Source: Leyella stercorea (GTDB taxonomy: Bacteria; Bacteroidota; Bacteroidia; Bacteroidales; Paludibacteraceae). Taken from it: DNA of 64,000 nt. The translations under genes were made by a program, and so were the position numbers. Location of the stretch: contig CAVKQB010000005.1 of assembly GCA_963658575.1 (NCBI GenBank), forward strand, positions 179 to 64,178. Direction: 5' to 3'. Below, piece after piece: positions 8,225 through 47,919 of this stretch. Position 1 is the stretch's first letter. Every line of letters begins with the position of its first letter. The notes beneath the pieces are model-generated. The model searched no databases. It was not told the DNA's origin and worked only from the letters and a program-made list of their open reading frames with translations.

Positions 8225-8311
8225 AAAAAGTTTGTTTTAAGTATAAGTAATTAGTAGTTAAAGAATTATCGCGCTTCGCATTGCCGCACACGACAATATC
8301 GAAACAAAATA

Positions 8312-8319
8312 CAAAGATA
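8312..8319 (-). promoter_or_regulatory. Bacteroidetes-type -7 box (TATCTTTG) for frdCAB
   Basis: Plus-strand CAAAGATA equals minus-strand TATCTTTG and matches TAnnTTTG. A TTTG (-33-like; plus-strand CAAA at 8340-8343) lies 20 nt upstream, which is the canonical spacing. Confidence 0.5.
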
Positions 8320-8401
8320 GTCGATTTTCGGCAAATGCGCAAACTAAACCGAAAAAAAATATTTTTTTGCTCCACCATTTGGCACTCTCGAAAGAAAAGC
8401 G

Positions 8402-8409
8402 TACCTTTG
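8402..8409 (+). promoter_or_regulatory. Bacteroidetes-type -7 box (TACCTTTG) for the zapA-rny gene string
   Basis: TACCTTTG matches TAnnTTTG, and a TTTG at 8378-8381 lies 20 nt upstream. This implies that the ATG at 8433, not the ORF-track start at 8367, is the first translatable start. Confidence 0.5.
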
Positions 8410-8432
8410 TACGAATATTTACAGTTCGACCG

Positions 8433-8726
8433 ATGAACCGCGAACATCAGCAAGCGACCGACGAATTTGAGGCAAAATTGGAGAGGCTCATATTCCTGTT
8501 CGAGAACGCCCAAAGCCGCGCCGATAAGTTGCAAAACGCGCTCGACGAGGCCAACGGCAAACTGATGGACGCACATCGGGAAATAGTCGAACTCCGCACG
8601 AAATACGAAAACCTGAAAATGGCACGCATGGTCGGATTCTCGGAAGAAGACAAGAAAAAAGCCTACCGACGCGTGTCGGGTTTTATGCGGAAAATTGACA
8701 GTTGTTTGGAATTGCTTAACGATTGA
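8433..8726 (+). CDS. small coiled-coil protein conserved upstream of zapA (cell-division context)
   Basis: 97 aa from the internal ATG (MNREHQQATDEFEAKLERL...). Heptad-like charged sequence. The start was chosen downstream of the predicted promoter. Confidence 0.6.
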   Translation: MNREHQQATDEFEAKLERLIFLFENAQSRADKLQNALDEANGKLMDAHREIVELRTKYENLKMARMVGFSEEDKKKAYRRVSGFMRKIDSCLELLND

Positions 8727-8734
8727 CGCACTCC

Positions 8735-9031
8735 ATGACGCACACAGACAAACTTCAGATAACGCTATCGATAGCAGGCCGGCGCCTACACCTGACGATA
8801 GACCGCGACGAAGAATTCGTCTTCCGCGAGGCAGCGCGAAAATTGAGCAACCGAATAGATTATTTGTACAAAGCATACCCAAAGGCCGACTACGCCTCGA
8901 TTCTCACCGTAGCAGCACTCGAAAAAGCCATCGACTGCGAAAAAGGAATCGGCAACCACGAAAGCATGCCTTTGCGAAGCAAAATAAACGAGTGGTCGGC
9001 ACTTATCGACCGCGTACTCGCCAACGAATAA
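8735..9031 (+). CDS. zapA: cell division protein ZapA
   Basis: The sequence MTHTDKLQITLSIAGRRLHLTIDRDEEFVFREAARKLSNRIDYL fits the ZapA family. The ORF-track start at 8723 is a TTG, and the first ATG is at 8735. Confidence 0.75.
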   Translation: MTHTDKLQITLSIAGRRLHLTIDRDEEFVFREAARKLSNRIDYLYKAYPKADYASILTVAALEKAIDCEKGIGNHESMPLRSKINEWSALIDRVLANE

Positions 9032-9182
9032 TCGCCCTGCCTTCGGGCAATCCTGCCATTTTCCACACATAAGCCACCCAAAAAGGCCGACCATTTCGCC
9101 GCGAAAAGTATTCGACGACGCACCCTATTTTATGCACAAAAACAGAGAAAAAACATACGAACACTAAAAAACACGAAAAATT

Positions 9183-10766
9183 ATGAACATCACACTATTT
9201 ATTATCATCGCCGTAGCGGCACTTGCTGGCGGCGGCGCACTCGGCTGGCTCATCACGCACATCAGCGTGAAAGGACGCGTGCAAAAAACACTGAAACAGG
9301 CCGAAAAAGATGCCGAAGAGTTGAAGCGCAACAAGATGCTCGAAGCCAAAGAAAAATTCCTGAACCTGAAATCGGACTTCGAAAAAGAGGTGGCCGACCG
9401 CAACGCCAAAGTGCAAGAGATGGAAAACCGCGCCAAACAGGCCGAATCGCGCATACAACAACGCGAACAAAGCCTGAACCAACGCCAAAACGAGCTGAAT
9501 CAACGCCAAGGCGAACTGCAACGGCGCAACAACGAAATCGACGCCATCAAAGAGAACCTCGACAAGCAACTGCAACTCGTCGACGAGAAAAAACAGGAAC
9601 TCGAACGGCTGCACTTCCAAGCCACCGAAAAACTGTCGGCCATATCGGGACTTTCGGTCGAACAGGCCAAAGCGCAACTCGTCGAAAACATCAAAGACGA
9701 AGCCAAAACCGATGCCATGGCATACGTGAACGAAATGATGGAAGAGGCCAAAATGACGGCCAACAAAGAGGCTAAACGCATCATCATACAAACGATACAA
9801 CGCGTAGCCACCGAAACCGCCATCGAAAACTCGGTTACCGTGTTCCACCTCGAATCGGACGAAGTGAAAGGCCGCATTATCGGCCGCGAAGGGCGCAACA
9901 TACGCGCACTCGAAGCCGCCACTGGCGTGGAAATCATCGTCGACGACACACCCGATGCCATCGTACTTTCGGGCTTCGACCCCGTGCGCCGCGAGATAGC
10001 ACGCTTGGCTCTGCACCAATTGGTTCAAGACGGACGCATACACCCTGCACGCATCGAAGAGGTGGTAGCCAAAACACGCAAACAGGTCGAAGAGGAGATT
10101 GCCGAAGTGGGCAAACGCACCACCATCGACCTCGGCATACACGGCCTGCACCCCGACCTTATCCGCCTAATCGGCAAGATGAAATACCGCTCGTCGTACG
10201 GACAAAACCTGCTGCAACACGCACGCGAAACCGCCAACCTCTGCGCCGTGATGGCCGCCGAACTCGGACTGAATCCGCAGAAAGCCAAACGCGCCGGCCT
10301 GCTGCACGACATAGGCAAAGTGCCCGACGACCAACCCGAACTGCCACACGCCATCTTGGGCATGAACTTGGCCGAAAAGTACAAGGAGAAACCCGACATC
10401 TGCAACGCCATCGGCGCACACCACGACGAGGTGGAGATGACCTCGCTCATCGCGCCCATCGTGCAAATATGCGATGCCATATCGGGCGCACGCCCTGGCG
10501 CACGCCGCGAGATAGTGGAGGCCTACATCAAACGCTTGAACGACCTCGAAAAACTTGCGCTCTCCTACCCCGGCGTGGTGAAAACCTATGCCATACAAGC
10601 CGGCCGCGAACTGCGCGTCATCGTGGGTGCCGACCGCGTGGACGACAAAGCCGTGGAGACACTCTCGTACGACATCGCCAAGAAGATTCAGGACGAGATG
10701 ACCTACCCCGGCCAAGTGAAAATCACCGTGATACGCGAAACACGCGCCGTAAGTTACGCCAAATAA
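9183..10766 (+). CDS. rny: ribonuclease Y
   Basis: 527 aa with an N-terminal TM helix, a long coiled coil, a KH domain ([19 protein letters not shown]) and an HD domain (LLHDIGK...GAHHDE). Confidence 0.95.
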
Positions 10767-10787
10767 AAACGCTGACAAAAAAACGGA

Positions 10788-10819
10788 ATCGGGCTGCAAA
10801 CATTGCAGCCCGATTTTTT
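10788..10819 (+). terminator. rho-independent terminator after rny (possibly bidirectional)
   Basis: Perfect 12-bp stem ATCGGGCTGCAA / TTGCAGCCCGAT with a 3-nt loop, followed by TTTTT. An A-run upstream means it could also stop the convergent dnd operon. Confidence 0.8.
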
Positions 10820-10842
10820 CACGCGCATCTTCGCGCATCGTT

Positions 10843-12426
10843 TTATTGCCATTGACCTTTCTGCCAATATTGATTTACACAAAACAATTCTCCTTTGGGA
10901 AACTCCTTAATATTGGATATTGCTTGTCCTTTCTGTATTTTTTCCAAACTACGATAAGCCTTGGCACCATCTTTATCCGTCAGCCCCAAGAATCTATTTA
11001 TTGGCCTCACATTATTTTTATCCTTTATATCAAGCAAAAAAGCAATTTCGCACATTGATGAAAAGTCGAACCCTTTTTGATTATATTCCTCTATACCTTG
11101 GGACAACAACACAATGGAAACCCCTTTTGAACGTATCTCACGCAGCATTTTTTCCAATATTTCCTCATATCTCTTTTCCTTGAACAATACATGCGCCTCA
11201 TCAATCAATATCACATAGCGCAATGCCTTGATATTGTCTTCAGTAGGAGTATTATCCATATTCATAAACACATTGTACATATAGTTGATAATCAAAAATA
11301 AAGACGTGAAGCGCACAGGGATGGGAAGATCGCCCGACAAAGAAAGATACAAATTTTTATTCAGAAAGTTCGATTCGTTTTTTTTGTCGTCTACAAAAAT
11401 TTTATAACGGCTCAAGTCATCCATTATTTCGGTCAGGCTATCCTGCTTGTCATATATTTCCAATAACCTTTCGTTAATTTGCGAAATTGTAGGATAAACG
11501 CCGCCACGCGCTTCCATAAAAGCGGCAGCAGTAGCATCCCGAAGCCTTCCCTTTTGTTTTGGCCCCAAATTCAGCGAACATTTGCAGACAATATCCACAA
11601 ATTTGTCGATGCCCATATTTTTGTTTTGCTCATTCACATTATCAATGAAAGTGAGTGGATTTATCGGAAACGGCGTATTAGGTACATCAATAAACTCGGT
11701 TTTCGTGTCATTGAAAAATTTTTCATAGGTCATCACATCATCCTGCTTCAACCCCTTAAAATCCAAATAAATATAGTTTACATGCCCATTCGACTTCTCA
11801 TAGATTTGCGAAATAACGTCTTTGGCGAATTCAGTTTTTCCAGTTCCCGAATTTCCGGCGACAGCAATATGGCAATTATTATATAGCGTACTGTCATTCA
11901 TGCTTAAATAAACAGGGGCGTTGTTTCCAATGGTTCGACCAACCTCCAATTTGATAAGGTTTGAAAAATAGGCTTTTTTAACATTTTGATTGTTGTTTCT
12001 CACATGGCCATTCGGAACATCCACATCAACCAAATGTTGGATACCCTTTTCTATATACTCGTTCAAGAAATCAAAGAAAGTATATTCGTTGCTTTCGAAA
12101 ATTTTATCCAACAATGACAAACCATCGTCAATGTGCATTTTAATGTATTTCGGGATGCTGTCGTCCGTTTTGTAAACGCCATAATATTGACATATCAATG
12201 CGATATAAAAATCTCGATATTGTGGGTCAAATAATATATGTTCCTTGTATTCCTTGCCCTTGGAATCCGCCGCATCATTGACATTGAACTTTTTCCCCTG
12301 TTGCAAAGAATAGGCCAACGCTATGCGGGCGATCACATTCTCTGCTATATTTTCTCCCAATTTTGGAGTAAGGCGACGGATTATTTCCTGACTCGCTTCT
12401 GACGTTTTGATGTTAATTTGCGCCAT
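10843..12426 (-). CDS. DndE-like N-terminal domain fused to a HerA/FtsK/VirB4-type P-loop ATPase
   Basis: 527 aa. The N-terminal ~110 aa (KTSEASQEIIRRLTPKLGENIAENVIARIALAYSLQ) resemble DndE. Walker A is AVAGNSGTGKTEF. Walker B/DEAH-like is VILIDEAHVLF, followed by RSKGVSIVLLSQG. It overlaps the dndD stop by 14 nt. Confidence 0.65.
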   Translation of the reverse strand: MAQINIKTSEASQEIIRRLTPKLGENIAENVIARIALAYSLQQGKKFNVNDAADSKGKEYKEHILFDPQYRDFYIALICQYYGVYKTDDSIPKYIKMHIDDGLSLLDKIFESNEYTFFDFLNEYIEKGIQHLVDVDVPNGHVRNNNQNVKKAYFSNLIKLEVGRTIGNNAPVYLSMNDSTLYNNCHIAVAGNSGTGKTEFAKDVISQIYEKSNGHVNYIYLDFKGLKQDDVMTYEKFFNDTKTEFIDVPNTPFPINPLTFIDNVNEQNKNMGIDKFVDIVCKCSLNLGPKQKGRLRDATAAAFMEARGGVYPTISQINERLLEIYDKQDSLTEIMDDLSRYKIFVDDKKNESNFLNKNLYLSLSGDLPIPVRFTSLFLIINYMYNVFMNMDNTPTEDNIKALRYVILIDEAHVLFKEKRYEEILEKMLREIRSKGVSIVLLSQGIEEYNQKGFDFSSMCEIAFLLDIKDKNNVRPINRFLGLTDKDGAKAYRSLEKIQKGQAISNIKEFPKGELFCVNQYWQKGQWQ

Positions 12427-14527
12427 GACTAATTTGATTGTATGTTGTGAATAAATTTGACGGTTCCGTTTCCATAAATTCAGAACTATCTGTTGTTGTA
12501 TTGTTAATTAAAAATGCCCGACAAACCTTTGGTTGGAGCAACCGATATTCTTCTTCCGTTAATTCCTTATATAATAATGGCAAAATGACCACTTGTTTGG
12601 CAACGTTAGGATAGAAATGCCTAATGATATTCTCTGCATGTTGTTTGTCAAACTTCTGCATAGGAGAGTCAATAAATACAGGAAAATCTATTTCAGATTC
12701 GGACACCAACGAATTTAACAAAGCCGAGGCATATAGTTGCCTTTCGCCCATAGATAAACCACTTTTGTTTATTTCTTCATCATTTGCTCCATACAAAACA
12801 ATATCGATGTCTTCGCTTGACATTATATCTACATCTATGCGTTGAACAAAATCCTTCTTATGCAATAATTGCGTAAGGGATTCTAACATTTTTGCCTGCA
12901 GCGACTCTTTCTTTTGATTCTTGAACTTCGTAATAAACTCGGCAAGTATATCAATAAGTTCTTTCGTTTTTTGTGCCTTTTCCGAATATTGCGTCGAATC
13001 GTCGATTTTTTTACGAATGGCCGTTTGCTCTTGACGAAGTTTCTTCAAATTTTCTTTCAATTCGTCGATTTTTCGATTTAGACTTCCTATTTTCTCTGCC
13101 TCTTCTCTAATTAAGCCATCAAAACTATCTTTTTGATCTCTCAAATCCTTTATACGGCCATCTTGTGCATTCCGCTCGGCATCGCGGATTTTGCGGCTGA
13201 TGACTGCAAGTTGGTTTCTTATGCCCATATATTCCGTATTAAGTTTTTCAAATCTGTATTTGAAGTCATTTTTAATTGACGATACAAGTTGATTGAAGTC
13301 ATGGATTTGATTTTCAGAAAAGTCGTGCAAAACTTTCAAATTTTCATCTATTTCTATGGCATCTGAGAAATATTTGATGATTGCCTCTCTAATTTGTTCG
13401 CGATAGAAATCGGCGACCTTAACATCTACCGTAAAGTTTCGGCGGCATCTTTCGTCGTCAATATCTTGTCTGATTCTGTCAATCTTTTCCCCTATATCCT
13501 CTTGTTTGAATTTTTGTTCGGACAAAATTCGCTCATTTTCAAGTTGTTCCGTGACATTCGCCAAGATTTCACCCGTCAAAGCAAACGGGATGTAATTAAA
13601 GCTTTCTTTTAATGCATTTTGTATATCCTTCTTTTGCTGTTCCAATTTGTTCTTTTCATCATTAAGTTGGCGCAATTCTTCTACACTCATTTTATCTCCA
13701 GCCCTTACAAGCCTTATTGAAAGTTCGTCCGAAATGTGCCTGTGCCGAGAAATTTGTTCATCTAATTTTTCAATTTCTTGGTCGGTTTCCTGAATTTCCA
13801 ATTCCGTATTTTTAATATCGGTTTCTAACTGGTTAAGTTGTCGTTTGTCATTTGTTTGCGCCGATTTCTTACGATATTCATCCTGTTTTTCCTCAAGATT
13901 ATCCTTAAGTATTTCGTATTTCTGTATTCCCAACACTTCCGAATAGGCTTGGCTTAATTGTTGCCGTTGTTCTTTTTGATTGTTGTTTGCGGCCAAGGCG
14001 GTTATTTTCTCCGCATCAAAAAAGAAAAATTTAGCGATGGCAATAGGCAAAATATAATCTCGGATAAAAATCTCTTCTCCTTTTTTGTTATCTTGTGAAA
14101 GATTATCTATCAATTCTTGCGCATAACCATCCAACAACACTTCAATTTTATCAGAAGTTCCTGTTATCGTATCGTAACTGCGTTTTATGGAAACATCACA
14201 GAGAACACCCTGTATATTAACTTCTGAGAACAGAATCTTTACATAGAAGTTGTGCTCTCCTTCCGCAGCTGCCTTACGGTTCATGCAGTCTGCTATATAG
14301 CGCGTATAGTTGCCTTGTTCGGTGATTTCGTTTTTATATATAGCATCGACTTGCTCCATGTTTTTGCCATACAAACACCAAACCAGCGACATAAGGAATG
14401 TTGTTTTCCCAAAACCGTTTTGCCCACTTAAAATAACAATGTTTTTATCGTTCTCGGGCATCAACGAAATTCGATTAACGCCCTTATAAATGCGAAAGTT
14501 GTTTAGTTCTATTTCTTTGATACGCAT
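12413..14527 (-). CDS. dndD: DNA sulfur modification protein DndD (SMC/ABC-like ATPase)
   Basis: 704 aa. N-terminus MRIKEIELNNFRIYKG...ILSGQNGFGKTTFL (Walker A), a long central coiled coil, and a C-terminal ABC signature/Walker B region (LSMGERQLYA...VFIDSP). Confidence 0.85.
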   Translation of the reverse strand: MRIKEIELNNFRIYKGVNRISLMPENDKNIVILSGQNGFGKTTFLMSLVWCLYGKNMEQVDAIYKNEITEQGNYTRYIADCMNRKAAAEGEHNFYVKILFSEVNIQGVLCDVSIKRSYDTITGTSDKIEVLLDGYAQELIDNLSQDNKKGEEIFIRDYILPIAIAKFFFFDAEKITALAANNNQKEQRQQLSQAYSEVLGIQKYEILKDNLEEKQDEYRKKSAQTNDKRQLNQLETDIKNTELEIQETDQEIEKLDEQISRHRHISDELSIRLVRAGDKMSVEELRQLNDEKNKLEQQKKDIQNALKESFNYIPFALTGEILANVTEQLENERILSEQKFKQEDIGEKIDRIRQDIDDERCRRNFTVDVKVADFYREQIREAIIKYFSDAIEIDENLKVLHDFSENQIHDFNQLVSSIKNDFKYRFEKLNTEYMGIRNQLAVISRKIRDAERNAQDGRIKDLRDQKDSFDGLIREEAEKIGSLNRKIDELKENLKKLRQEQTAIRKKIDDSTQYSEKAQKTKELIDILAEFITKFKNQKKESLQAKMLESLTQLLHKKDFVQRIDVDIMSSEDIDIVLYGANDEEINKSGLSMGERQLYASALLNSLVSESEIDFPVFIDSPMQKFDKQHAENIIRHFYPNVAKQVVILPLLYKELTEEEYRLLQPKVCRAFLINNTTTDSSEFMETEPSNLFTTYNQISHGAN

Positions 14528-14544
14528 TACGTTTCCTCCCCTTA

Positions 14545-15897
14545 TTATAAGTATTTTTCTATAACCTGTTCCATCTCATCCTTTAGACCGCGTTTGCGAT
14601 TCAGAAGTGCTTTTTGTTTCTGTAATTCAAGCAGTGCTTGAATCAAGTCAAAATCTTGACCATCCGCAGGACAAACGGATTTCAACAATTCGGTTTCTTT
14701 TTGCAATTTTTCCGTTAAGTTTTTCATGTCCAATTCTTTATTATAAACATTATTGTAAATTTCCGAAACGGTTTGGTAGTTCAATAATTCTCTACCCTTT
14801 TTACTTGACATCGCCAAATCACGCCTCCAAATCACTTGAATGGCAATAAGTTCTTGATTACTTATCAACTCGACACTGGAATGCGTTTGCTGAATGGCGT
14901 ATTGAGCCATCAATAACTGTTTAAGCAATCGTTCCCGATATTCGTGCGTGTAATTTCCTTGGTTGTGTCCATCTTCTGTAACAGCCTTTTGCCCGTTACG
15001 GCGTGTCTGCATACGATTATTTGACACATTACGCTCCTCAAACATACTCTGCCGCAAATCCAATAATGGCTTTAACCATTCCTGTCCCCTTTCGACCAAA
15101 GCCGTTAATGATTTATCCTCGTTCACTACCGTACATGTCCAACAGCCAAAGCGACTTTGTCCACATGATCCATGGCTCTTGTCTGTAACCATAGTCGGAC
15201 ACTCATAATCATCTGCACTTGCATCTAAATAGATTTGGAATAATTTAGAATTATCCGCACCCCACGGCGAAGTCATTGCATTTATGATATACCAAACTTC
15301 TTCCAGCATCAAATCTTTAATCGGTGCGTAAACAAATGTATTGTAATGATGGGGATGTTTGGAAAGCCGTTTTCCTCTGATTTCGTGTTTTTTGATAGAC
15401 CTTGCCCTTGTTGCACTCTCTGCGCTCCGTGTACCAATTAAAATAATGGCCTCTCCATTGGCCGTTACTTGTTCAACAATAAAACGGGAAGTCGGTTTTA
15501 TTTTCATCTTATCGGTACACCAACGAAACGTATTGTTTGGTACGGGATAGCCTCTGCCAATAACATTAACCCAAAAACTATCATCCAAACAAGGAATAGT
15601 CATATGCACCGTTACAGGCATATTCTGCTGTACCGCCGCACCTTCAATTTTTTTCAACACATCCTTCACATATCCCTGAATAACAGGATTTTCAACAAGT
15701 GTGTCGTTACAGACGACATGTATTTCTCGTTTACGCATCTCCGAAGGGATTTCGCTTACTGCGAGCCAAACCAATTGTAACAAGGCTGTAGAATCCTTGC
15801 CTCCGCTAAACCCAACAATCCAAGGTCGCCAATTATCATCAATCAAGTATTGATCTTTTATTTCTGAAATAATATAACTTATTCGTGTCATAAGCAT
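14545..15897 (-). CDS. dndC: DNA phosphorothioation sulfurtransferase DndC (PAPS-reductase/PP-loop fold)
   Basis: 450 aa with the PP-loop IVGFSGGKDSTALLQL and a Cys-rich segment (CPTM...SCGQSRFGCWTC) typical of the DndC Fe-S site. Confidence 0.85.
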   Translation of the reverse strand: MLMTRISYIISEIKDQYLIDDNWRPWIVGFSGGKDSTALLQLVWLAVSEIPSEMRKREIHVVCNDTLVENPVIQGYVKDVLKKIEGAAVQQNMPVTVHMTIPCLDDSFWVNVIGRGYPVPNNTFRWCTDKMKIKPTSRFIVEQVTANGEAIILIGTRSAESATRARSIKKHEIRGKRLSKHPHHYNTFVYAPIKDLMLEEVWYIINAMTSPWGADNSKLFQIYLDASADDYECPTMVTDKSHGSCGQSRFGCWTCTVVNEDKSLTALVERGQEWLKPLLDLRQSMFEERNVSNNRMQTRRNGQKAVTEDGHNQGNYTHEYRERLLKQLLMAQYAIQQTHSSVELISNQELIAIQVIWRRDLAMSSKKGRELLNYQTVSEIYNNVYNKELDMKNLTEKLQKETELLKSVCPADGQDFDLIQALLELQKQKALLNRKRGLKDEMEQVIEKYL

Positions 15898-15921
15898 CTA
15901 ATTTTGATTCAAAATTTTAAC

Positions 15922-16126
15922 CAACAAAAAAGGCATTCACTATTTTGTTCGTTACTTATTTAAGAAAGAAAGGTTCCGCCAAGAACCGCCGACGATAAAT
16001 AAGTACAAAATAGTTCATGCCACAATAGCGTGAACCTTTGCATGCTTATTCTCTCGTCATAAAACTTGGCGGATTTATCTTTCTGAGAATAAGAGCGTAA
16101 AGCCCAAATTATGAATATGTTAGTTT
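15922..16126 (-). ncRNA. candidate structured 5' leader / cassette-junction element, copy A (paralog of 46019-46217)
   Basis: The reverse complement aligns colinearly with the region upstream of the Type III mod gene. This includes a 20/21-identical block GCTTTACGCTCTTATTCTCA (16103-16084) and two helices with compensatory changes. See findings. Confidence 0.45.
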
Positions 16127-16190
16127 AGTTTTTCGTTTTTTCTGCTATTCTGTTGATTTATTGTTTTACAAAAAATGCGTGCATTATCGG

Positions 16191-17012
16191 TTACTGCAAC
16201 ACCATATTATATAGTTGGCAGCCGGCAAAGGCATCAGGAGTGCAGGCGGGCGGCTCGGCGTCGGGGGCGAACAGGCCGTAGATGGTGCTTCCGCTACCCG
16301 ACATGGCGGCATACGCTGCACCGCTGTCGTACAAACGCTGCTTGATGTCGGCCAGCACAGGGTGCCGCGCAAAGACATTCGCTTCGAAATCGTTGAATAC
16401 GCCATTGCGCCATTCGGCCACGGGGCGTTGCAAGGCCTCGCGCAGCGGCACCGCCCAACGTTTGCAGGCAATGTGCGCATAGGCTTCGGCCGTAGCGACA
16501 TGCACATCGGGTTTCACCAGCCAAATGTGCCAACCTGCCAACGGAAGCGCGATATCGGAAAAGCGGTCGCCGATGCCTTCGGCAAAAACGGGTTTGTTGC
16601 GCACGAAAAATGCGCAATCGGCACCCAACTGCGCGGCGTAACGTTCGAGGCGGTCGTCCGTAAGCCCCAGACCGAACTGCGCATTGAGCAGTTTGAGCAT
16701 GAAAGCCGCATCGCTCGAGCCGCCGCCCAAGCCAGCCCCCATCGGGATTTTTTTGAGCAACGCAATGGTCGCGTTCGGCAGGTCGAAATCGCGCTGCAGC
16801 AGACGGAACGCGCGCACAACCAGATTGTCGTCGCACGCGCCAGCGACAGGCGTGCCATAGGTGCGCAACGCAAGCGCATCGGCCGGCACAACTTCGAGTG
16901 CATCGCACAAGGCGATGGGATAGAACACCGTCTCGATGTCGTGGTAACCGTCGGCACGGCGCGCCACCACGTTCAAACCCAAGTTGATTTTAGCATTCGG
17001 AAAAACGACCAT
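16191..17012 (-). CDS. ispE: 4-(cytidine 5'-diphospho)-2-C-methyl-D-erythritol kinase
   Basis: 273 aa. The N-terminus FPNAKINLGLNVVARRADGYHDIETVF and the GHMP kinase motif PMGAGLGGGSSDAA match IspE. Confidence 0.92.
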   Translation of the reverse strand: MVVFPNAKINLGLNVVARRADGYHDIETVFYPIALCDALEVVPADALALRTYGTPVAGACDDNLVVRAFRLLQRDFDLPNATIALLKKIPMGAGLGGGSSDAAFMLKLLNAQFGLGLTDDRLERYAAQLGADCAFFVRNKPVFAEGIGDRFSDIALPLAGWHIWLVKPDVHVATAEAYAHIACKRWAVPLREALQRPVAEWRNGVFNDFEANVFARHPVLADIKQRLYDSGAAYAAMSGSGSTIYGLFAPDAEPPACTPDAFAGCQLYNMVLQ

Positions 17013-20166: not shown

Positions 20167-20193
20167 TCGGCAAACGCAGCCCGAAAAACAAAC

Positions 20194-20221
20194 GAATGGC
20201 GCATCAACACGTGTGCCATTC
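20194..20221 (+). terminator. hairpin terminator after the DUF349 gene
   Basis: GAATGGCGCA-N8-TGTGCCATTC forms a 10-bp stem with one G.U pair, followed by TGTTT. Confidence 0.45.
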
Positions 20222-20524
20222 TGTTTAGTTAGTAGTTAGTAGTTAGTAATGAGGAGTGAGGAGTGAGGAGTGAGGAGTGAGGAGTGAGAAGTTAGAAGTT
20301 AGAAATTGTTGGGCGCGAGCCTGTCCCCTTTGCAAGGGGACGAGAAAAACGGAACGTTTTTCGGGTGGGGTTGATTTTAATTAAGAATTAAGAATGAATA
20401 ATTAAGAATTATTCGCGTCCAAGTTGTCCTTGTTCTTTATTCTATGTTCTTTGTTCTAAAAAATTGCGATAGCAATTTTGAGAAACAATTAAAAAACAGC
20501 AATTCTACAAATTGAAATAAGAAA
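20222..20524. repeat. intergenic repeat mosaic M1 (heptad tract plus shared modules)
   Basis: 92 nt with no C (20222-20313). This tract contains AGTTAGT x3, GAGGAGT x5 (20251-20285) and GAAGTTA units. It is followed by GTTGGGCGCG, the hairpin GTCCCCTT-TGC-AAGGGGAC (20323-20341), TTAAGAA repeats, and the module GTTGTCCTTGTTCTTTATTCTATGTTCTTTGTTCTAAAAAATTGC, which is shared with 39961-40007. Confidence 0.85.
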
Positions 20525-26814: not shown

Positions 26815-27888
26815 TCATTTCTTCACCAAGATTCCCATGGCATCGAGCACTTTGTCGCGGAAATCGATGTTTTGCTGCACGCCGGCGAAGCGTTCGGCAC
26901 CTGGGCCAAAGGCAAACACAGGCACAGGCACGCCGCTGTGGTCGGGCTTGTTGAATTTGCATTCGACGTGGCCAGTGGCAAAATCGCCGTTGATGATGGA
27001 GAGTGCGCCAGTTTCGTGGTCGGCGGTAATCACCACGAGCGTGTTGCCGTCCTTGCGTGCAAAGTCGAGCACCTTGCCGATGGCGCGGTCGAAATCGAGC
27101 ATTTCGCGAATCATCTCTTCGCCGTTGTTGTTGTGGCATTGGTAGTCGATTTGCGAGCCTTCGACCATGAGGAAGAATCCGTTGGTGTCGCGCGCCAGCA
27201 CTTCGATGGCCTTTTCGACGGCCGATGGCAGGTAGTCGCCGCGCTCGGAGGCTATCGGCATATCGATGTCGGCCAGCGGAGCGAGTATTTTCGGGCTGTT
27301 CGACTTCAGCAGGTCGGCTTCGGTATAGACCACGTCGTAGCCTTTGTCGGCAAATTGGCGCGAGAGGTTTTGTCCGTCGGCACGCTGTTCGAGGTTTTGG
27401 CGGCCGCCGCCAATCAGCACGTCGATGTCGGCAGCGAGCATGTCGAGCGCGATTTCGTCGTACATTTTGCGCGAAATTTGGTGCGCGTAGAAGTCGGCCG
27501 GTGTGGCGTGGGTGAGCGGACACGTTACGACGATGCCCGTGGCTTTGCCGTTTTGGCCGGCGTAGTAGAGCGACGAGTAGAGCGGCGTGATGCTGTCGGG
27601 GGCAAGTCCGACCATGTTGTTGCGTGTTTTGCTGCCCGTGGCCAACGCTGTGCCGCCGGCCGCGCTATCGGTGATGTAGTTGTTGGCCGAGTAGGTTTTG
27701 CTGAATCCGGTGATGGGGCACTGCTCGATGTTGAGCGAGCCGCCATTGGCGGTGAGTGCGGCGTAGATTTGGTTGATTCCCATGCCGTCGCCAATCATGA
27801 ACACGACGTTTTTGACTTTTGGCTGCGCCAGAAGCGACGAGCAGCAGAGTGCTAATAATACTCCACAGAGAAATTTTTTAGTTTGCAT
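26815..27888 (-). CDS. alkaline phosphatase (PhoA family), secreted
   Basis: 357 aa with a signal peptide, VVFMIGDGMGINQ and DSAAGGTALATG (active-site Ser context). Confidence 0.9.
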   Translation of the reverse strand: MQTKKFLCGVLLALCCSSLLAQPKVKNVVFMIGDGMGINQIYAALTANGGSLNIEQCPITGFSKTYSANNYITDSAAGGTALATGSKTRNNMVGLAPDSITPLYSSLYYAGQNGKATGIVVTCPLTHATPADFYAHQISRKMYDEIALDMLAADIDVLIGGGRQNLEQRADGQNLSRQFADKGYDVVYTEADLLKSNSPKILAPLADIDMPIASERGDYLPSAVEKAIEVLARDTNGFFLMVEGSQIDYQCHNNNGEEMIREMLDFDRAIGKVLDFARKDGNTLVVITADHETGALSIINGDFATGHVECKFNKPDHSGVPVPVFAFGPGAERFAGVQQNIDFRDKVLDAMGILVKK

Positions 27889-28924
27889 ATTCGTATTGTA
27901 AATTTTTGAAAATATAATCTACAGGCGGGGTAAAGATATCTCCCTTTATGAGGCTCAATTTGTTTTTAGTGGCTGTAATAGCCAAATCCGATTGGTCGAT
28001 GCCAATCCATTTTCGTCCATTTCTTTGGGCAGCCGCCAACGTGGTACCGCTCCCACAGAAACAGTCCATCACAATACTGTCTTCATTGGAAGAGGTCTTG
28101 ATAATTAAATCCAACATCTCGGCATTTTTCTCGGTTGGGTAATTAGGATATTGTGGGTCTTTATATTCCCAAATATCCTGAACCCTTTTTCCGTCGCGCT
28201 CGTCGGCATAGATGATTTTGCGTGGATTGCCGTTCGACGACCATTCTATCAAACCGACCTTGTCCCATCTTTCCAATGTGGCGACATCTGTCCGCCAATG
28301 CCGCCCTTGCGGCGGGTAAATTCCCTTGAATGGCTGGTTGGATTTCCCGTTTTCGGTTTCGCCAGGGGCGTGAATGGGAACAGTTGTATAGCGTCGGCCG
28401 TTTCGGTCTATTTTCGGGAATAGTTTTTCCACATCTTTTTCCGTGTATTTTTCCCGTGGCTCGTTCCAAATAGGGAAAGATGTTTTGGTATAAAAAAGTA
28501 TCAAATCTTTTATATTGCCGTAACCGATTCTTTCAAAATTTTTCGGATTGCACTTTATGCGTGTAATGTCATTCCTAAAATTTTCGATGCCAAACACTTC
28601 GTCCATCATCACTTTTACATAATGGCCGATTTTGTAGTCGATATGCAGATAAACAGAGCCTTGGTCAGACAACAATTCCCGAATAAGAATCAAACGATTC
28701 CGCAAAAAATCGATAAAATCGCTCCCTTTTAACGTATCGGCATAGGCAATCTCTCCGTTGCGTGAATTGCTAATGGTCGAGGCGCGTCCGTTTGTGATAG
28801 TAAAATTGCCTCCTGTTGCAAAGGGAGGGTCGATATATACCAAATCAATCTTCCCGCCATATCCCTGTTCCAACAGATAGTTCAGCCCTGTAATGTTTTC
28901 ACTATGTATCAGTAGGTTTTTCAT
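27878..28924 (-). CDS. Type II DNA methyltransferase, beta-class (probable N6-adenine)
   Basis: 348 aa. Motif IV (IDPPFATGGNF) is near the N-terminus and motif I (DCFCGSGTTLAAA) near the C-terminus. AT-rich relative to flanking DNA. Its ATG overlaps the upstream endonuclease stop (TAATG). Confidence 0.85.
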   Translation of the reverse strand: MKNLLIHSENITGLNYLLEQGYGGKIDLVYIDPPFATGGNFTITNGRASTISNSRNGEIAYADTLKGSDFIDFLRNRLILIRELLSDQGSVYLHIDYKIGHYVKVMMDEVFGIENFRNDITRIKCNPKNFERIGYGNIKDLILFYTKTSFPIWNEPREKYTEKDVEKLFPKIDRNGRRYTTVPIHAPGETENGKSNQPFKGIYPPQGRHWRTDVATLERWDKVGLIEWSSNGNPRKIIYADERDGKRVQDIWEYKDPQYPNYPTEKNAEMLDLIIKTSSNEDSIVMDCFCGSGTTLAAAQRNGRKWIGIDQSDLAITATKNKLSLIKGDIFTPPVDYIFKNLQYEYAN

Positions 28925-29706
28925 TACAATTGATATAAAAATTCACGCAAAACCAAGGCACTCATAATATTGTATGACTTGTACGTTTCCGTTATTTCCC
29001 GATACATTTTGTTGTTGCCTTTTATGTAGAGTACACCATCGAGAATCGCTATTTTTTCCGCTTTTACACGTTTTGTTTCGACGGTCGAAATAGCATCGTT
29101 GAATTGAGCGTTTTGATGCCCTCCAAAATCAGTCAAAAACTTGGCTTCTCCAATCACATATTTTCCGTTGAAACGACCTACGAAATCAAGTCCCTTGTCT
29201 CTGTCATATCCCAACTCCTCTTTCGCAAAATCCATCATCAATTTATCGTTTCCATCGAGGATGGCATTCCCTTTTGATGAAAGGAACTTTTCCAGCCCTA
29301 CAGGTTTTATTCCTAAAGCCTTTGATTTGAGCCACTCCTTAAACATGGGACCAATTTGCCGATTGGTTTCTTTGGGTTCGCTGCAGCGTTCGTACAATTT
29401 TGACAATCCTAATTCATAAATTCTACCACAAAGACGGTTGATTGTTTCTGGATTCCTTTCGATGGCCGATTTATCTCTCTTTAAGTAAGCAACATAACTA
29501 TCTTTTATGGGAAACAAATCCAATTCCAATAGGGAGCGTATCAGTTGAACATTGTTTTTTTGTTTGAACGCTTTTTCCACATTTCCCCAAACATTACCGT
29601 TTATATCCCTTATCCCTTCTGGAATGGTAGGATATACGCGGAATAGGTCGTCCAAATAAGAACGTTGATTGGCGTATTCGATGCTGAGTTTTGTCCACTT
29701 TTTCAT
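28924..29706 (-). CDS. putative Type II restriction endonuclease (PD-(D/E)xK-like)
   Basis: 260 aa from the ATG at 29706 (MKKWTKLSIEY...). It has a candidate D...E-x-K motif (LDFVGRF...VIGEAKF), is translationally coupled to the methylase, and has AT-rich composition. The family was not identified. Confidence 0.6.
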   Translation of the reverse strand: MKKWTKLSIEYANQRSYLDDLFRVYPTIPEGIRDINGNVWGNVEKAFKQKNNVQLIRSLLELDLFPIKDSYVAYLKRDKSAIERNPETINRLCGRIYELGLSKLYERCSEPKETNRQIGPMFKEWLKSKALGIKPVGLEKFLSSKGNAILDGNDKLMMDFAKEELGYDRDKGLDFVGRFNGKYVIGEAKFLTDFGGHQNAQFNDAISTVETKRVKAEKIAILDGVLYIKGNNKMYREITETYKSYNIMSALVLREFLYQL

Positions 29707-29726
29707 ATCGTTCAAGTTTTTTTGGA

Positions 29727-30077
29727 TTATTCTATTACGACCTCTTCGTCGAAGGCATCGTTGTCGTTGAGTTCGTGGCGGAAGTCGGCGAGTTCGCGGC
29801 GCAGTGCTTCGAGCGTGTCGCGCAGTTTTTGTTTGCGTTCCACATCGCTTTTGTTTGTAGCGAGCCGCTCTTTTGCGCCCGAAATGGTCAGTTTTTGGTC
29901 GTTCAGCAGAAATTGAATCAGTTTCACCGTTTCGATATCGGCGGGACTGTAGTAGCGGCGGCCGTTGGTGCGCTTGGGGTTGAGTTGCGAAAATTCCTTT
30001 TCCCAATAGCGCAAAGTCGAGGCGTTCACGCCGAACTGCTCGGCCACTTCGTTGATGGAGTAATAGGCTTTTTCCAT
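29727..30077 (-). CDS. MerR-family transcriptional regulator
   Basis: The sequence YSINEVAEQFGVNASTLRYWEKEF...RTNGRRYYSPADI is a MerR HTH, followed by a C-terminal coiled coil. The start was taken at MEKAYYS. Composition matches the host. Confidence 0.8.
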   Translation of the reverse strand: MEKAYYSINEVAEQFGVNASTLRYWEKEFSQLNPKRTNGRRYYSPADIETVKLIQFLLNDQKLTISGAKERLATNKSDVERKQKLRDTLEALRRELADFRHELNDNDAFDEEVVIE

Positions 30078-30126
30078 GGATTTTTTTAATTCCCCGATAG
30101 GGAAACGCAACTTTCACATTTTTTAC

Positions 30127-37648: not shown

Positions 37649-38683
37649 GTGGACGCTATGAGAGTGCTTATCATCTGTTTTTCGGGCATCAGCAACGTGG
37701 CATCTGTTGTGCCACCGCTCGATGCGCTCGACAGGCGGTATCCTCAGCACGAATTTACGGTGTTGAGCAGGCACTTTTTGCAGCCGCTGTTCGCACATTT
37801 TGCGCACGTTACGTTTGTGGGAGCCGACATTCGCCGCAAGCACAAAGGGCTGCGTGGTGCGCTCAAACTCTTCGGCGAATTGCGCCGCCAGCGGTTCGAT
37901 GTGGTAGTCGATTTGCAAGATGCGCCGCGCACACGGCTATTGCGCCGGCTTTTTCGCCTTTTTGGTGCAAAAGTGGTAGTGGTCGACAAGCAGCGCGCCG
38001 AACGTCGCCGGTTGATACGCCGTGGAGCGTTGCGCTACAAGCCGCTGAAAACCATTTTCGAGCGTTACAGCGAAGCCTTCGGGCAGATAGGGCTGCAAAC
38101 CGACGACCAATTTGTGCGTATTCCGCCCGCTTCGGACGAAAAACGGCAGAAGGTGGTCGAAATATACGGCGAAAAACGCGGACATTGGATTGGCATCGCC
38201 CCACTGTCGATAGCGCGCGGCAAAACGTTGCCGTTTCGGAAGACAAAAAACGTCATCCGCCACTTCGACAGCCAGCCCGACACCAAGATATTTCTGTTTG
38301 GCGCAGGCGAGATGGAAAACGAACTCTTGGGCGATTGGCAGACCGTGTTCACCAACGTGTATGCCGTGCATACATCGCTCAAACTCGACGAAGAGTTGGC
38401 GCTGATGGAGCAGTTGGACGTGATGGTAACGATGGATTCGGGCAACATGCACTTGGCTGCGCTCACCGCCACGCCTGTGGTGAGCATTTGGGGAGCCACG
38501 CACCCGTATGCGGGCTTTGGCGGCTGGCGACAACCGGCCGAAAACCAAGTGGGCGTCGATTTCTCGTGCCGGCCATGCACCGCACACGAAGCCAAACGGT
38601 GCAAATACGGCGACTACCGCTGCCTCGAAAGCATTCCGTCGGAAAAGATAATCGGCACCATCGAACGAGTTATAAATAGTTAG
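37649..38683 (+). CDS. glycosyltransferase family 9 (heptosyltransferase-like)
   Basis: 344 aa. VTMDSGNMHLAAL resembles the GT9 DSGPMHLAAA motif, and the overall layout fits. The stop TAG is the first triplet of the downstream heptad tract. Confidence 0.75.
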   Translation: MDAMRVLIICFSGISNVASVVPPLDALDRRYPQHEFTVLSRHFLQPLFAHFAHVTFVGADIRRKHKGLRGALKLFGELRRQRFDVVVDLQDAPRTRLLRRLFRLFGAKVVVVDKQRAERRRLIRRGALRYKPLKTIFERYSEAFGQIGLQTDDQFVRIPPASDEKRQKVVEIYGEKRGHWIGIAPLSIARGKTLPFRKTKNVIRHFDSQPDTKIFLFGAGEMENELLGDWQTVFTNVYAVHTSLKLDEELALMEQLDVMVTMDSGNMHLAALTATPVVSIWGATHPYAGFGGWRQPAENQVGVDFSCRPCTAHEAKRCKYGDYRCLESIPSEKIIGTIERVINS

Positions 38684-39056
38684 TAGTGAGAAGTGAGTAA
38701 TTAGTAGTGAGGAGTGAGGAATGAGATTAGAAATGAGAAATTAGGAGTGAGGAATTAGGAGTTGTTGGGCGCGATTCTGTCCCTCTGCTTGGAGCGAAGC
38801 GGAAAGATAGGGGGACGAGGAGCGATAGCGACGGAGGGGGTTCTTTCCTAATTAAGAATTATGAATTAAGAATTTTTTCGGTAAGCGAGAGCAGAGTCAA
38901 ACTTGTTTGAACTATGCCGAGCGGAGAAAAAAAGCGCGTAGCGAATGAATAATAATCCTCAAATAACCAAATAACCAAATCCACAGAAACTTAGAAACGC
39001 GCGTAGCGCAATCAAATAACCAAATCCACAGAAATTTAGAAACAATACGAAAAACT
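38681..39056. repeat. intergenic repeat mosaic M6
   Basis: 89-nt C-free heptad tract (38681-38769). GTTGGGCGCG. A ~215-nt module (38775-38990) recurs at 41945-42150. Two copies of AAATAACCAAATCCACAGAAAnTTAGAAAC. GCGC-GTA-GCGC hairpin at 38999-39009. Confidence 0.85.
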
Positions 39057-41738: not shown

Positions 41739-42170
41739 TTAGCAGTTAGTAGTGAGCAGTGAGGAGTTAGGAATGAGGAGTGGTGCGGCGAAGCCGCAAT
41801 TTCAAGAACAAAGAATATAGAACATAGAGCAAAGACTTTTTAATTATCTAATTATTTAATTTCCAATTATTTAATCAATTTTAGATTTCGAATTGACAGA
41901 TTGAGGATTCAATGATTCAATAAATCAATAAGTCAATGATTCATTTCTGTCCCTCTGCCGAGCGCAGCGAGGATAGGGGGACGAGGAGCGACAGCGACGG
42001 AGGGGGTTGAAACCAATTAAGAATTAAGAATTTTTTCGGTAAGCGAGAGCAGAGTCAAACTTGTTTGAACTATGCCGAGCGGAGAAAAAATGCGCGCAGC
42101 GAATTAAGAATGAATAATAATCTCCAAATAATCAAATAACCAAATCTCCAAAAGCCAAAAAAACTTTCCT
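41736..42170. repeat. intergenic repeat mosaic M8
   Basis: TAG-initiated heptad tract, TGCGGC-GAA-GCCGCA hairpin (41784-41798), AT-rich word repeats (AATTATTTAAT, TCAATGATTCA), and the second copy of the ~215-nt module (41945-42150). Confidence 0.85.
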
Positions 42171-44897: not shown

Positions 44898-45989
44898 ATG
44901 GCAGCACACGATACAAATATCGACCTAAACGAGTACATGCGCCAAACCGAGCCGCAAAAAAACGACAAGGTAAAAGCATGGCAGGTAGCCATCGGCCTAC
45001 AAGCCGTCGATGGTTTGACCACGTCCGACTATTTGCTATCGACCGCCAAAAGACACATCGACGGCGACCTATCCATTGCCGAAGTGCAGGATTTGATTGG
45101 GCAATACTACACAACACAAGAAGGGCGCGCCCTCAACGAGGCAAAAAGAACCGAAGAGGCCGACAAAGTGGCGGCAAACATCACCGAAATACTCGGACAA
45201 AACACATTCACTTTTTCTCCAGCAGGATTTGCGGCAATTCACCGGCGGCTTTTCACGGGCATACTGCACCACGCAGGGCAATACCGCACCTACAACATCA
45301 CAAAACAAGAGTGGGTTTTGCGTGGCGACAGCGTTATCTACACCGACTACAGCATGATAGCCGACACCCTTGCCTTCGATTTCGAGCAAGAAAATCCATC
45401 GGCCTATACGCAGATGGACATGCCAACACTGATTCACCACATTTGCAAGTTCATTGCTGGCATTTGGCAGATACACCCATTCGAAGAGGGCAACACGCGC
45501 ACAACGGCCATTTTTACCATCAAATACCTGCGGAGTCTGGGGTTGAACGTGGACAATTCCGCCTTTTCCGAACACTCATGGTATTTCCGGAACGCGCTGG
45601 TACGCGCCAACTACCACAATTACCAAAAAGGCATTGCCGACACAAACGAATTTCTCGAACTCTTCTTCAGAAACCTACTGCTCGGAGAGCATAACAGCCT
45701 GAAAAACAGGTATATGCTCGTCGGTGCAACATGGCAACACCAGCAAAAAGTACCGGCAAAAGTACCGAGAAAAAGTACCGAGAAAAGTACCGAGAAAAGT
45801 ACCGAGAAAAGTACCGAGAAAATTTTGGCGCTCATGAAGCGCAAGCCCAGCATCACCATCAAGGAACTGTGCGCCGCCCTGCCTATGTCTGACAAAGGTG
45901 TGCGCAAAAACATAAACAAACTGAAAGAACAAGGCCGTTTGCGCCGCATTGGCCCCGACAAAGGCGGCTCGTGGCAAGTAACCGGCTGA
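44898..45989 (+). CDS. Fic/DOC-family protein with C-terminal winged-helix domain
   Basis: 363 aa with the Fic motif HPFEEGNTRTTAIF, a (STEK)4 linker repeat, and a C-terminal HTH-like region (ITIKELCAALPMSDKGVRKNINKLKEQGRLRRIG). Confidence 0.85.
   Translation: MAAHDTNIDLNEYMRQTEPQKNDKVKAWQVAIGLQAVDGLTTSDYLLSTAKRHIDGDLSIAEVQDLIGQYYTTQEGRALNEAKRTEEADKVAANITEILGQNTFTFSPAGFAAIHRRLFTGILHHAGQYRTYNITKQEWVLRGDSVIYTDYSMIADTLAFDFEQENPSAYTQMDMPTLIHHICKFIAGIWQIHPFEEGNTRTTAIFTIKYLRSLGLNVDNSAFSEHSWYFRNALVRANYHNYQKGIADTNEFLELFFRNLLLGEHNSLKNRYMLVGATWQHQQKVPAKVPRKSTEKSTEKSTEKSTEKILALMKRKPSITIKELCAALPMSDKGVRKNINKLKEQGRLRRIGPDKGGSWQVTG
45746..45823 (+). repeat. tandem AAAGTACCG(R)(S)A repeats inside the Fic gene
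   Basis: Four perfect 12-nt units AGTACCGAGAAA (45774-45821) are preceded by two degenerate units. A 13-nt unit shifts the reading frame of the repeat, from KVP to STE. Confidence 0.9.
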
Positions 45990-46018: not shown

Positions 46019-46217
46019 TAACTAACATAACCACAGAGCTTTACGCTCTTATTCTCACAAATCGGAATCTAGACAATTTCAATGCGTATGGGAATAAGTG
46101 AGCGAAGGTTCATGCTTTCGGGCGTGAACTGTTTCGTGCTTATTTACGCATAGGGAAGTCTAGACCCTCGATTTGAATAAGCAAACAAAACGAGCAGTTC
46201 ATAGCCTTTTTTGTTGC
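46019..46217 (+). ncRNA. candidate structured 5' leader / cassette-junction element, copy B (paralog of 15922-16126)
   Basis: Colinear with the reverse complement of the dndC upstream region. Helices are conserved with compensatory substitutions. It ends about 40 nt before the mod ATG. Confidence 0.45.
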
Positions 46218-47908: not shown

Positions 47909-47919
47909 CCCGTAGAGCC

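Follow-up and report, generated by a model that had tools for sequence, protein, structure and literature searches.

The 64,000-nucleotide stretch of the Leyella stercorea genome analysed here (contig CAVKQB010000005.1 of assembly GCA_963658575.1, referred to throughout as the window) carries three co-directional genes, dndC, dndD and dndEi, at positions 10843 to 15897 between rny and ispE. We consider it highly probable that these genes form an intact phosphorothioate (PT) modification cassette of a known type, resident at its site, swapped between alleles, and probably gated by a structured RNA leader. Judged by its sequence, the cassette is of the dndCDEi type of the Bacteroidota and adds another genome to a well-populated family; beyond this known type, the leader RNA family and the exchange of alleles between strains are the more interesting findings.

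Identity of the cassette proteins

All three open reading frames (ORFs) lie on the reverse strand. The first, dndC (14545-15897), encodes a 450-residue PP-loop ATP pyrophosphatase of the PAPS reductase family, the sulfurtransferase of the phosphorothioation module; dndD (12413-14527) encodes a 704-residue coiled-coil ATPase of the structural maintenance of chromosomes/ATP-binding cassette (SMC/ABC) type; and dndEi (10843-12426) encodes a 527-residue protein in which a DndE DNA-binding domain (residues 6-112, approximately 12091-12411) is fused to a HerA/FtsK-type ATPase (residues ~150-500, approximately 10927-11979) recognised by Pfam, PDB profile and Foldseek searches. The tight packing described in a first-pass annotation made from the sequence alone, with a 17-nt gap between dndC and dndD and a 14-nt overlap between dndD and dndEi, is the same in our ORF coordinates. 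The gene identities proposed there are likewise borne out, as profile searches place all three products above curated cutoffs. DndC scores 449 bits against the equivalog TIGR03183 (cutoff 290) and 487 bits against the PADLOC DndC model, matches Pfam PAPS_reduct, and displays the PP-loop SGGKDS and a Cys cluster in its translation. DndD scores 285 bits against the equivalog TIGR03185 (cutoff 246), and the third protein scores 72 bits against the Pfam DndE family PF08870 (cutoff 25) over residues 6-112. The C-terminal ~50 residues of DndC (400-447; 14548-14700) also give a sub-threshold match to Pfam Sp-DndD, a 'small protein found in certain Dnd systems' (21.2 bits, cutoff 27.2), which hints that the DndC of this cassette clade may be fused to a small Dnd accessory protein.

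In PADLOC, the 'PbeC' model PDLC02742 matches DndD over its full length at 869 bits (E = 7e-262), compared with 309 bits for the DndD models, and on this score the locus could be read as a Pbe-type system built around a CxC ABC ATPase instead of a Dnd modification module. PbeABCD and the window do both pair a coiled-coil ABC ATPase with a protein like DndE. The defining feature of PbeC, however, is a CxC Zn-hook at the coiled-coil apex (PMC10853773), and the CxC is absent from the window DndD and from each of 62 orthologues. Moreover, DndD passes the TIGR03185 equivalog and adjoins a bona fide DndC, and neither PbeA (an HKD endonuclease plus SF2 helicase, sought with Pfam and PADLOC) nor the small disordered PbeB nor a separate PbeD was found in the window. 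The weak PbeA matches that do occur (E = 1e-8) fall on the helicase part of a Type III Res protein, itself scoring 249 bits as REase_III. Without CxC, PbeA, PbeB and PbeD, the Pbe reading of the second gene was rejected, its product being assigned to the DndD clade and not the CxC/PbeC clade, and a Pbe-type identity for the locus is barely credible. The 'PbeC' label appears to be a misnomer, carried by a model that seems to derive from this Bacteroidota DndD subclade.

The remainder of DndEi matches Pfam HerA_C, AAA_10, FtsK_SpoIIIE and DUF87, and the family alignment shows no variation in Walker A (GxxGxGKT) or Walker B (DE). Residues ~150-460 align with the C-terminus of DndH (PADLOC, E = 1e-24), and comparison of a family profile with the PDB retrieves the DptH ATPase domain (7es4, E = 8e-17) and DndE (7x4e, E = 4e-5). 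In the AlphaFold model of DndEi, the ATPase core has a predicted local distance difference test (pLDDT) score of 70-89 and the N-terminal DndE domain one below 50; given this low confidence in the DndE domain, the ATPase core alone was used for the fold search, in which Foldseek places the predicted core nearest the DndH C-domain (E = 2e-10), followed by VirB4 and HerA. By profile and by predicted fold, no solved structure is closer to the DndEi ATPase than the C-terminal domain of DndH/DptH (PDB 7es4), although DndH is a ~1700-residue restriction protein with a REase domain, whereas the ATPase of the window sits in a modification module. An exact-sequence look-up of DndEi returned no record.

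A known and minimal cassette type

The first-pass annotation regarded the DndE-ATPase fusion as part of an unusual orphan architecture. The fusion is, in fact, the published DndEi. PMC6435447 (citing Barbier 2013 and Zheng 2016) describes an extended DndE in Riemerella anatipestifer, Flavobacterium indicum and Kordia algicida; in its summary of Zheng 2016, the extra domain has helicase and ATPase activity, is essential for PT in R. anatipestifer, and is stimulated as an ATPase by GAAC/GTTC DNA. A dndEi has also been reported in Prevotella and Bacteroides (PMC7464106). Our homology search returned at least 984 clusters of ~525-residue DndE-ATPase fusions, mostly from the Bacteroidota and named 'DndE family protein' at the source. 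One genome per GTDB species was scanned and 198 relatives were confirmed; among the best 80 of these 198, which were kept and include R. anatipestifer, the dndC-dndD-dndEi order and spacing are invariant wherever the contig allows.

The Riemerella and Flavobacterium clusters share with the window the three genes, their order and overlaps, and the two-domain DndEi (527 residues in the window versus 526). In a comparison with R. anatipestifer strain RCAD1090, which is not the published ATCC 11845, DndEi is 65% identical (82% positives) over 524 residues, end to end, and DndC and DndD are 62% and 49% identical. The Riemerella cluster likewise lacks an adjacent dndA or dndB and is equally minimal, but it belongs to another taxonomic order, its host GC content is 0.35-0.38 versus ~0.55 for the Bacteroidales-like window, and it does not have the structured leader that precedes the window cassette. 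Because DndD is only 49% identical to that of Riemerella, the PT target motif may differ.

Relative to the canonical DndABCDE(-FGH) systems of Streptomyces lividans, Salmonella and E. coli B7A, the DndC, DndD and DndE domains are of orthologous families, and the PT chemistry is presumably the same. The window cassette differs in its fused DndE and in lacking DndA, DndB and DndFGH. Statements of absence cover the scanned ORFs of the window, several of which have no Pfam match: positions 1-24.9 kb were covered by the Pfam annotation of near-identical contigs, and the rest by Pfam on 30 ORFs and PADLOC on 10 large or unknown ORFs, with tblastn for paralogues. Within this scope, and as the first-pass annotation had stated, we found no DndB (PF14072, DGQHR), no DndFGH or SspE (Pfam, PADLOC), and no integrase or transposase; nor did tblastn detect a second DndH-type ATPase or a paralogue of any Dnd protein. 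The added reading of such orphan status as unusual is not supported. In a 2024 survey, DndA occurs in 32% and DndB in 51% of taxa with the modification module, and all eight Dnd genes occur together in 7% of all recovered taxa; the same survey argues that DndABCDE and DndFGH are functionally decoupled, treats DndDE as the conserved core with the DndD/DndE pair as the specificity core, and notes that IscS can replace DndA (PMC10853773).

The surroundings of related cassettes point the same way. Among 65 dndCDEi loci with at least 2.5 kb beyond dndEi, 19 have no recurrent co-directional partner, including the window, R. anatipestifer and the closest relative (contig CAVGYO010000014.1). In 22 of the 65, dndEi is followed by a PD-Lambda-5_A-like ParB-domain protein, usually with a 328-residue partner; in 19, by a DndB-family (PF14072) protein, often after a small ORF; and in the remaining 5, by HATPase_c_3 and/or Methyltransf_35, or by HARE-HTH/Mrr alone. 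Counting the upstream side by itself, any one family is shared by three of the surveyed loci at most.

The first of these add-ons is a two-gene module directly after dndEi (8256-10332 in locus L058; also in loci L021, L026, L029 and L032), in which a ~367-residue ParB_N-like protein matches PADLOC PD-Lambda-5_A (E = 4e-27) and its ~328-residue neighbour has no Pfam or PADLOC match; the pair, so far uncharacterised, is a candidate partner of the PT module or its effector. The DndB-family (PF14072, DGQHR) genes stand after dndEi and not before dndC (L094 12071-13300, L081 10398-11642 and ~17 others). The small ORF that often precedes them, of 166-193 residues, appears by eye to be GIY-YIG-like or membrane-like depending on the locus, and one subgroup of these DndB-like proteins scores better as DpdB. 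A ~667-residue protein, TraG/VirD4 coupling-like by eye, adjoins some loci (L025 4265-6268, L024, L075, L078), and a tyrosine-recombinase-like ORF lies near the cassette of L044 (12406-13356), which suggests that some dndCDEi loci may ride conjugative or integrative elements, unlike that of the window.

A minimal cassette might also be a complete defence system, in which the DndEi motor would act like DndH, translocating on or excluding unmodified invading DNA, with no restriction arm needed. The similarity of the DndEi ATPase to the DndH/DptH C-domain fits this idea, as do the argument that HerA/FtsK 'capture' is widespread among anti-invader systems (PMC10853773) and the 19 of 65 loci, the window among them, that have no recurrent partner. 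Yet Pfam, NCBIfam and PADLOC detect no nuclease domain in DndC, DndD or DndEi, modification as such depends on the extra DndEi domain, as PMC6435447 summarises, and 46 of the 65 loci carry downstream add-ons (PD-Lambda-5_A-like, DndB-like, HARE-Mrr), suggesting a separate source of defence functions. We judge self-contained defence to be improbable and favour a modification cassette.

Residency of the cassette and exchange of its alleles

The first-pass annotation called the cassette an AT-rich island, and its composition is as described: GC content is 0.34-0.42 over 10750-16249 and 0.55-0.62 in rny and ispE, with means of 0.376 for the cassette and 0.514 for the whole window. The terminator that it placed between rny and the cassette is also real. 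It spans 10787-10815, has a 13-bp stem with 7 G-C pairs and a T-run on each side, and is bidirectional, serving the convergent rny and dndEi in common. Comparison with relatives shows that the island is not a recent insertion. In conspecific metagenome-assembled genome (MAG) contigs, 91-100% identical overall, the cassette occupies the same ispE/rny site, and the synteny is the same in a related species (contig CAVGYO010000014.1, our locus L020), in which rny is 90% and ispE 81% identical at the nucleotide level. The cassette is thus foreign by composition but resident in the lineage.

An empty rny/ispE site, which the first-pass annotation had proposed to seek in related genomes, was not found, and the original insertion boundaries could therefore not be defined. 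Every genome with an IspE at least 90% identical also has the cassette, and the genomes with an Rny at least 90% identical that lack the cassette have unrelated genes after rny. The window contains no tRNA, and no direct repeats flanking the cassette were found; without tRNA, integrase or flanking repeats, site-specific integration was rejected. The contig CAVGYO010000014.1 bears the title 'Erysipelotrichaceae bacterium' but shares synteny with the window, to which it is 77-92% identical across rny, ispE and dndCDEi; this MAG contig has probably been mis-binned or mislabelled, and loci L022 ('Streptococcaceae') and L042 ('Acidaminococcaceae') may be similarly mislabelled.

One conspecific MAG, GCA_963653575.1, carries a divergent allele at this site. 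Its flanking genes are 98-99.7% identical to those of the window, and the leader and the spacer holding the terminator are 100% identical, whereas over the whole genes dndC is 83%, dndD 74% and dndEi 77-85% identical in nucleotides. A sliding comparison of identity puts one breakpoint ~220 nt into dndC and the other ~100 nt short of the dndEi stop codon, delimiting a swapped tract of ~4.7 kb (~10950-15675, reverse strand); the outer ends of both genes are 100% identical, and sampled 50-nt blocks just inside both breakpoints show 72-88% identity. At the protein level, this allele is 89%, 72% and 79% identical to that of the window (DndC, DndD and DndEi), compared with 95%, 90% and 90% to that of CAVGYO010000014.1. 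The allele is nearer to that of another species, and allele classes therefore cross species boundaries. This pattern of identities indicates that cassette alleles are exchanged whole by homologous recombination. Among the three proteins, DndD has diverged most, which would fit a DndD/DndE specificity core and a switching of specificity.

The low-GC, foreign composition and the lacking partner genes would also be expected of an inactive remnant of horizontal transfer. That reading is very improbable. The three ORFs are full length with intact catalytic motifs in the window, and the ORFs are intact in three MAGs and one related species; the site is the same in several genomes, and two divergent full-length alleles have been kept. 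Intact ORFs, a conserved site and two maintained alleles point to selection rather than decay, as expected of a resident cassette.

A structured leader upstream of dndC

The ispE-dndC spacer holds a ~160-nt leader element for which two folds can be drawn on the strand sense with dndC (reverse strand of the window). In the rod fold (15947-16106), a hairpin GAGC-UUUAC-GCUC is followed by a ~145-nt nested rod (helices H0, H1a, H1b, H2 and apical P2). The minimum free energy (MFE) of the window rod is -54.4 kcal/mol, and the same architecture is seen in 17 copies with MFEs of -50 to -70 kcal/mol. In the alignment of 17 sequences, 87.6% of cells are paired versus 77.3% in shuffles, 23 pairs show compensatory changes, and 106 double-change cells are found against 39.5 +/- 4.9 in shuffles, none of 500 of which reaches the observed value. 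The covariation score is 0.351, compared with 0.08-0.13 in slid controls. Two helices are hypervariable yet complementary, with H1 duplex energies of -21.0 kcal/mol for cognate and -9.7 kcal/mol for non-cognate arms.

In the terminator fold, positions 16005-16021, which in the rod belong to the apical hairpin as its 3' side, pair instead with 15932-15948, a 17-nt inverted repeat of 88% complementarity. The 3' arm is followed immediately by a U-run (15926-15931; arm and U-run together 15926-15948), 28 nt before the dndC ATG. An equivalent, covarying helix of 14-18 bp that ends at a T4-T7 run occurs in 17 of 17 copies, with a mean energy of -21.7 kcal/mol versus -8.5 +/- 3.1 kcal/mol for shuffled arms. 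Mutually exclusive antiterminator and terminator helices with a U-run, conserved with covariation, are the hallmark of an attenuator, and all are found here; this layout suggests, from the alignment, that the leader may regulate transcription into dndC.

No described family accounts for the element. Rfam 15 gives no match at gathering score anywhere in the window and chance-level matches only at E <= 10 on the leader itself; the FopS small RNA (sRNA) family was considered and rejected, as its architecture differs and FopS is already in Rfam. A literature search by sequence found no paper, and no copy was found in phage or virus collections. There is no conserved leader peptide, the 4-codon ORF ATG ACG AGA GAA TAA occurring in two copies only. 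A sigma-70 promoter scan found 16 matches where 17.7 are expected in shuffles, with a consensus unsuited to Bacteroidota.

The leader heads other accessory operons

The first-pass annotation proposed that a structured leader in front of dndC might functionally replace DndB. A conserved, structured, attenuator-like leader does exist; the proposed role finds no support, as nothing connects the leader with DndB in function and it is missing from most dndCDEi cassettes, R. anatipestifer included (z = +0.6), in covariance-model and fold scans. Nor is it specific to dnd, because it also heads R-M (restriction-modification) and other operons.

A second copy in the window (46035-46189, forward strand), outside the dnd cassette and directly upstream of a Type III mod gene (46256-47908), is 72-75% identical to the dndC leader by blastn, nhmmer and alignment, and scores 113 bits with a covariance model. 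A pattern scan of metagenomes recovered 15 further copies, BLAST one in Phocaeicola massiliensis, and the covariance model one in Bacteroides ovatus and, in a Crocinitomicaceae MAG, a divergent one that precedes dndC; in a Bacteroidales MAG (L082), a rod of -92.7 kcal/mol occupies the same position. In our locus numbering, copies lie at L020 5089-5248, L048 2683-2841, L115 886-1043 and L117 1255-1411, and in L100-L114. The operons headed encode Type III Mod/Res, Type I HsdM/HsdS or a methyltransferase (MTase) plus helicase, and also an AAA_15/21 ATPase with SF0329, RmuC, and YcaO/radical-SAM clusters. In most copies outside the window, the first gene after the leader encodes a helix-turn-helix (HTH) protein of 68-103 residues (L101 1578-1808; L115 1068-1298; also L103, L105, L108-L110 and L112-L114; proteins P0143-P0262). 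This family comprises at least 499 clusters from Bacteroides, Phocaeicola and Parabacteroides, labelled 'XRE family transcriptional regulator', has no Pfam domain, and has the consensus hIGxxI...TWLAxQI...IYKIF...ID..LL.RIS.AL..DFF. The window contains no homologue.

The leader resembles known attenuators and the C-protein-controlled R-M operons in having two mutually exclusive folds, one antiterminator-like and the other a terminator, ahead of a modification operon, and the latter also in the small HTH gene often found between leader and operon. It differs from both in having no conserved leader peptide, no known ligand and an unusually long rod (~145 nt), and in its hypervariable complementary helices, lack of an Rfam family, and association with an HTH family without a Pfam domain. 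We tentatively propose, with somewhat less than even confidence, that the leader (~230 nt) represents an undescribed class of bistable cis-regulatory RNA in the Bacteroidales, a portable expression gate heading horizontally exchanged accessory operons.

A long near-palindrome in several copies per genome, two of them in the window, could alternatively be a repeat acting at the DNA level, such as a MITE-like (miniature inverted-repeat transposable element) sequence, a recombination site or a cruciform that travels with mobile accessory operons. The neighbourhood of horizontally exchanged operons, together with its place at the border of the swapped dnd tract, would suit such a repeat, and quasi-palindrome correction could mimic covariation. 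Several observations make this unlikely. All examined copies are co-oriented with the downstream gene, and the downstream start codon follows the start of the conserved motif at a roughly constant 173-252 nt (14 metagenomic copies with a callable ORF). Non-Watson-Crick pairs on the sense strand comprise 84 G.U versus 24 A.C, and the covariance model scores 110 bits on the leader sense strand versus 29 bits on the other. Neither a transposase nor a target-site duplication nor a flanking repeat was found, and a DNA palindrome leaves the conserved, covarying, exclusive helix ending at a U-run unexplained.

A working model for the cassette

Several points weigh against our overall reading of an intact, probably leader-gated PT cassette. 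PT modification of the host DNA is predicted solely from the genes; the DndE domain, though above the Pfam cutoff, falls under the NCBIfam equivalog cutoff (43 versus 71.85 bits); and no cysteine desulfurase (DndA, Aminotran_5-type) was found among the scanned ORFs of the window. For the leader, we infer transcription from covariation and the G.U asymmetry only. Its terminator helix encloses a loop of 47-61 nt, atypical of intrinsic terminators, and inspection by eye gave no convincing match to a TTTG/TAnnTTTG promoter. The R. anatipestifer cassette has no leader, so that the function of the cassette does not depend on one.

Established knowledge of the Dnd pathway, together with PMC6435447 on DndEi, nevertheless allows a mechanism to be proposed. 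A housekeeping cysteine desulfurase encoded elsewhere would supply persulfide sulfur, which DndC, as a PP-loop/iron-sulfur enzyme, would activate and transfer. The DndD coiled-coil ABC ATPase and the DndE domain would together form the DNA-scanning, site-selecting core, and the HerA/FtsK-type ATPase fused to DndE, essential in R. anatipestifer, would contribute ATP-driven strand separation. The predicted product is a PT at a short motif (GAAC/GTTC in Riemerella). Expression is probably gated by the lineage-acquired structured leader, which would adopt either the long rod, with the U-run unpaired, or the terminator helix followed by the U-run. In the absence of a cognate restriction arm from the window, the modification may serve as a stand-alone epigenetic or protective mark, or a partner reader nuclease may lie elsewhere.

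Gene content of the window

On the rny side, the genes are, in order, EamA, glycosyltransferases, HipA/HipB, SdhCAB, ZapA and Rny; on the ispE side, they are IspE, GT21, DUF349, PanB, TilS and a Peptidase_S8 with a type IX secretion system (T9SS) tail (Pfam). Two R-M systems coexist with the cassette, as the first-pass annotation had recognised: a Type II system (27878-30117; Pfam) of an N6_N4 MTase and a Tsp45I-like REase, and the Type III Mod/Res pair (46256-50565; Pfam and PADLOC). Beyond the Type II system lie housekeeping genes, ParA/ParB, a Fic-HTH protein, the Type III genes, a 2427-residue ORF and an SPFH protein. The Fic/DOC plus HTH protein (44898-45989, forward strand) matches the PADLOC candidate PDC-S72 at 398 bits and SoFic; its gene immediately precedes the second leader copy and the Type III system and has a GC content of 0.50, below that of the host, and this region may be a second small defence island.

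The 2427-residue ORF (50749-58032, reverse strand) has no Pfam match at E <= 1e-4 and a GC3 of 0.74, a host-like codon GC; the antisense ORFs of up to 1582 residues that overlap it are a typical artefact of GC-rich DNA. A further family of intergenic repeats, ~90-190 nt long and 85-87% identical between copies, occurs at ~20180-20370, 38678-38873, 41945-42031 and 58860-58968; it emerged as secondary BLAST matches from locus L016 4548-4751 (GCA_963653575.1).

Implications

With this cassette, the notion that dnd loci are unusual when they lack dndA, dndB or dndFGH can be set right. Two divergent alleles between identical flanks, one of them common to another species, constitute a natural experiment on the residues that set DndD/DndEi specificity, and the proteins encoded after dndEi in related loci, namely the PD-Lambda-5_A-like and 328-residue pair and the DndB-like proteins, are candidate PT-dependent effectors. 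If our tentative proposal is true, the leader would time the switch-on of newly acquired DNA-modification genes and flank the point at which alleles are swapped. The presence of the leader in Bacteroides ovatus and Phocaeicola massiliensis, which are cultured and tractable, makes this possible new regulatory RNA directly testable; it would, if the proposal holds, control both DNA-modification and other accessory operons.

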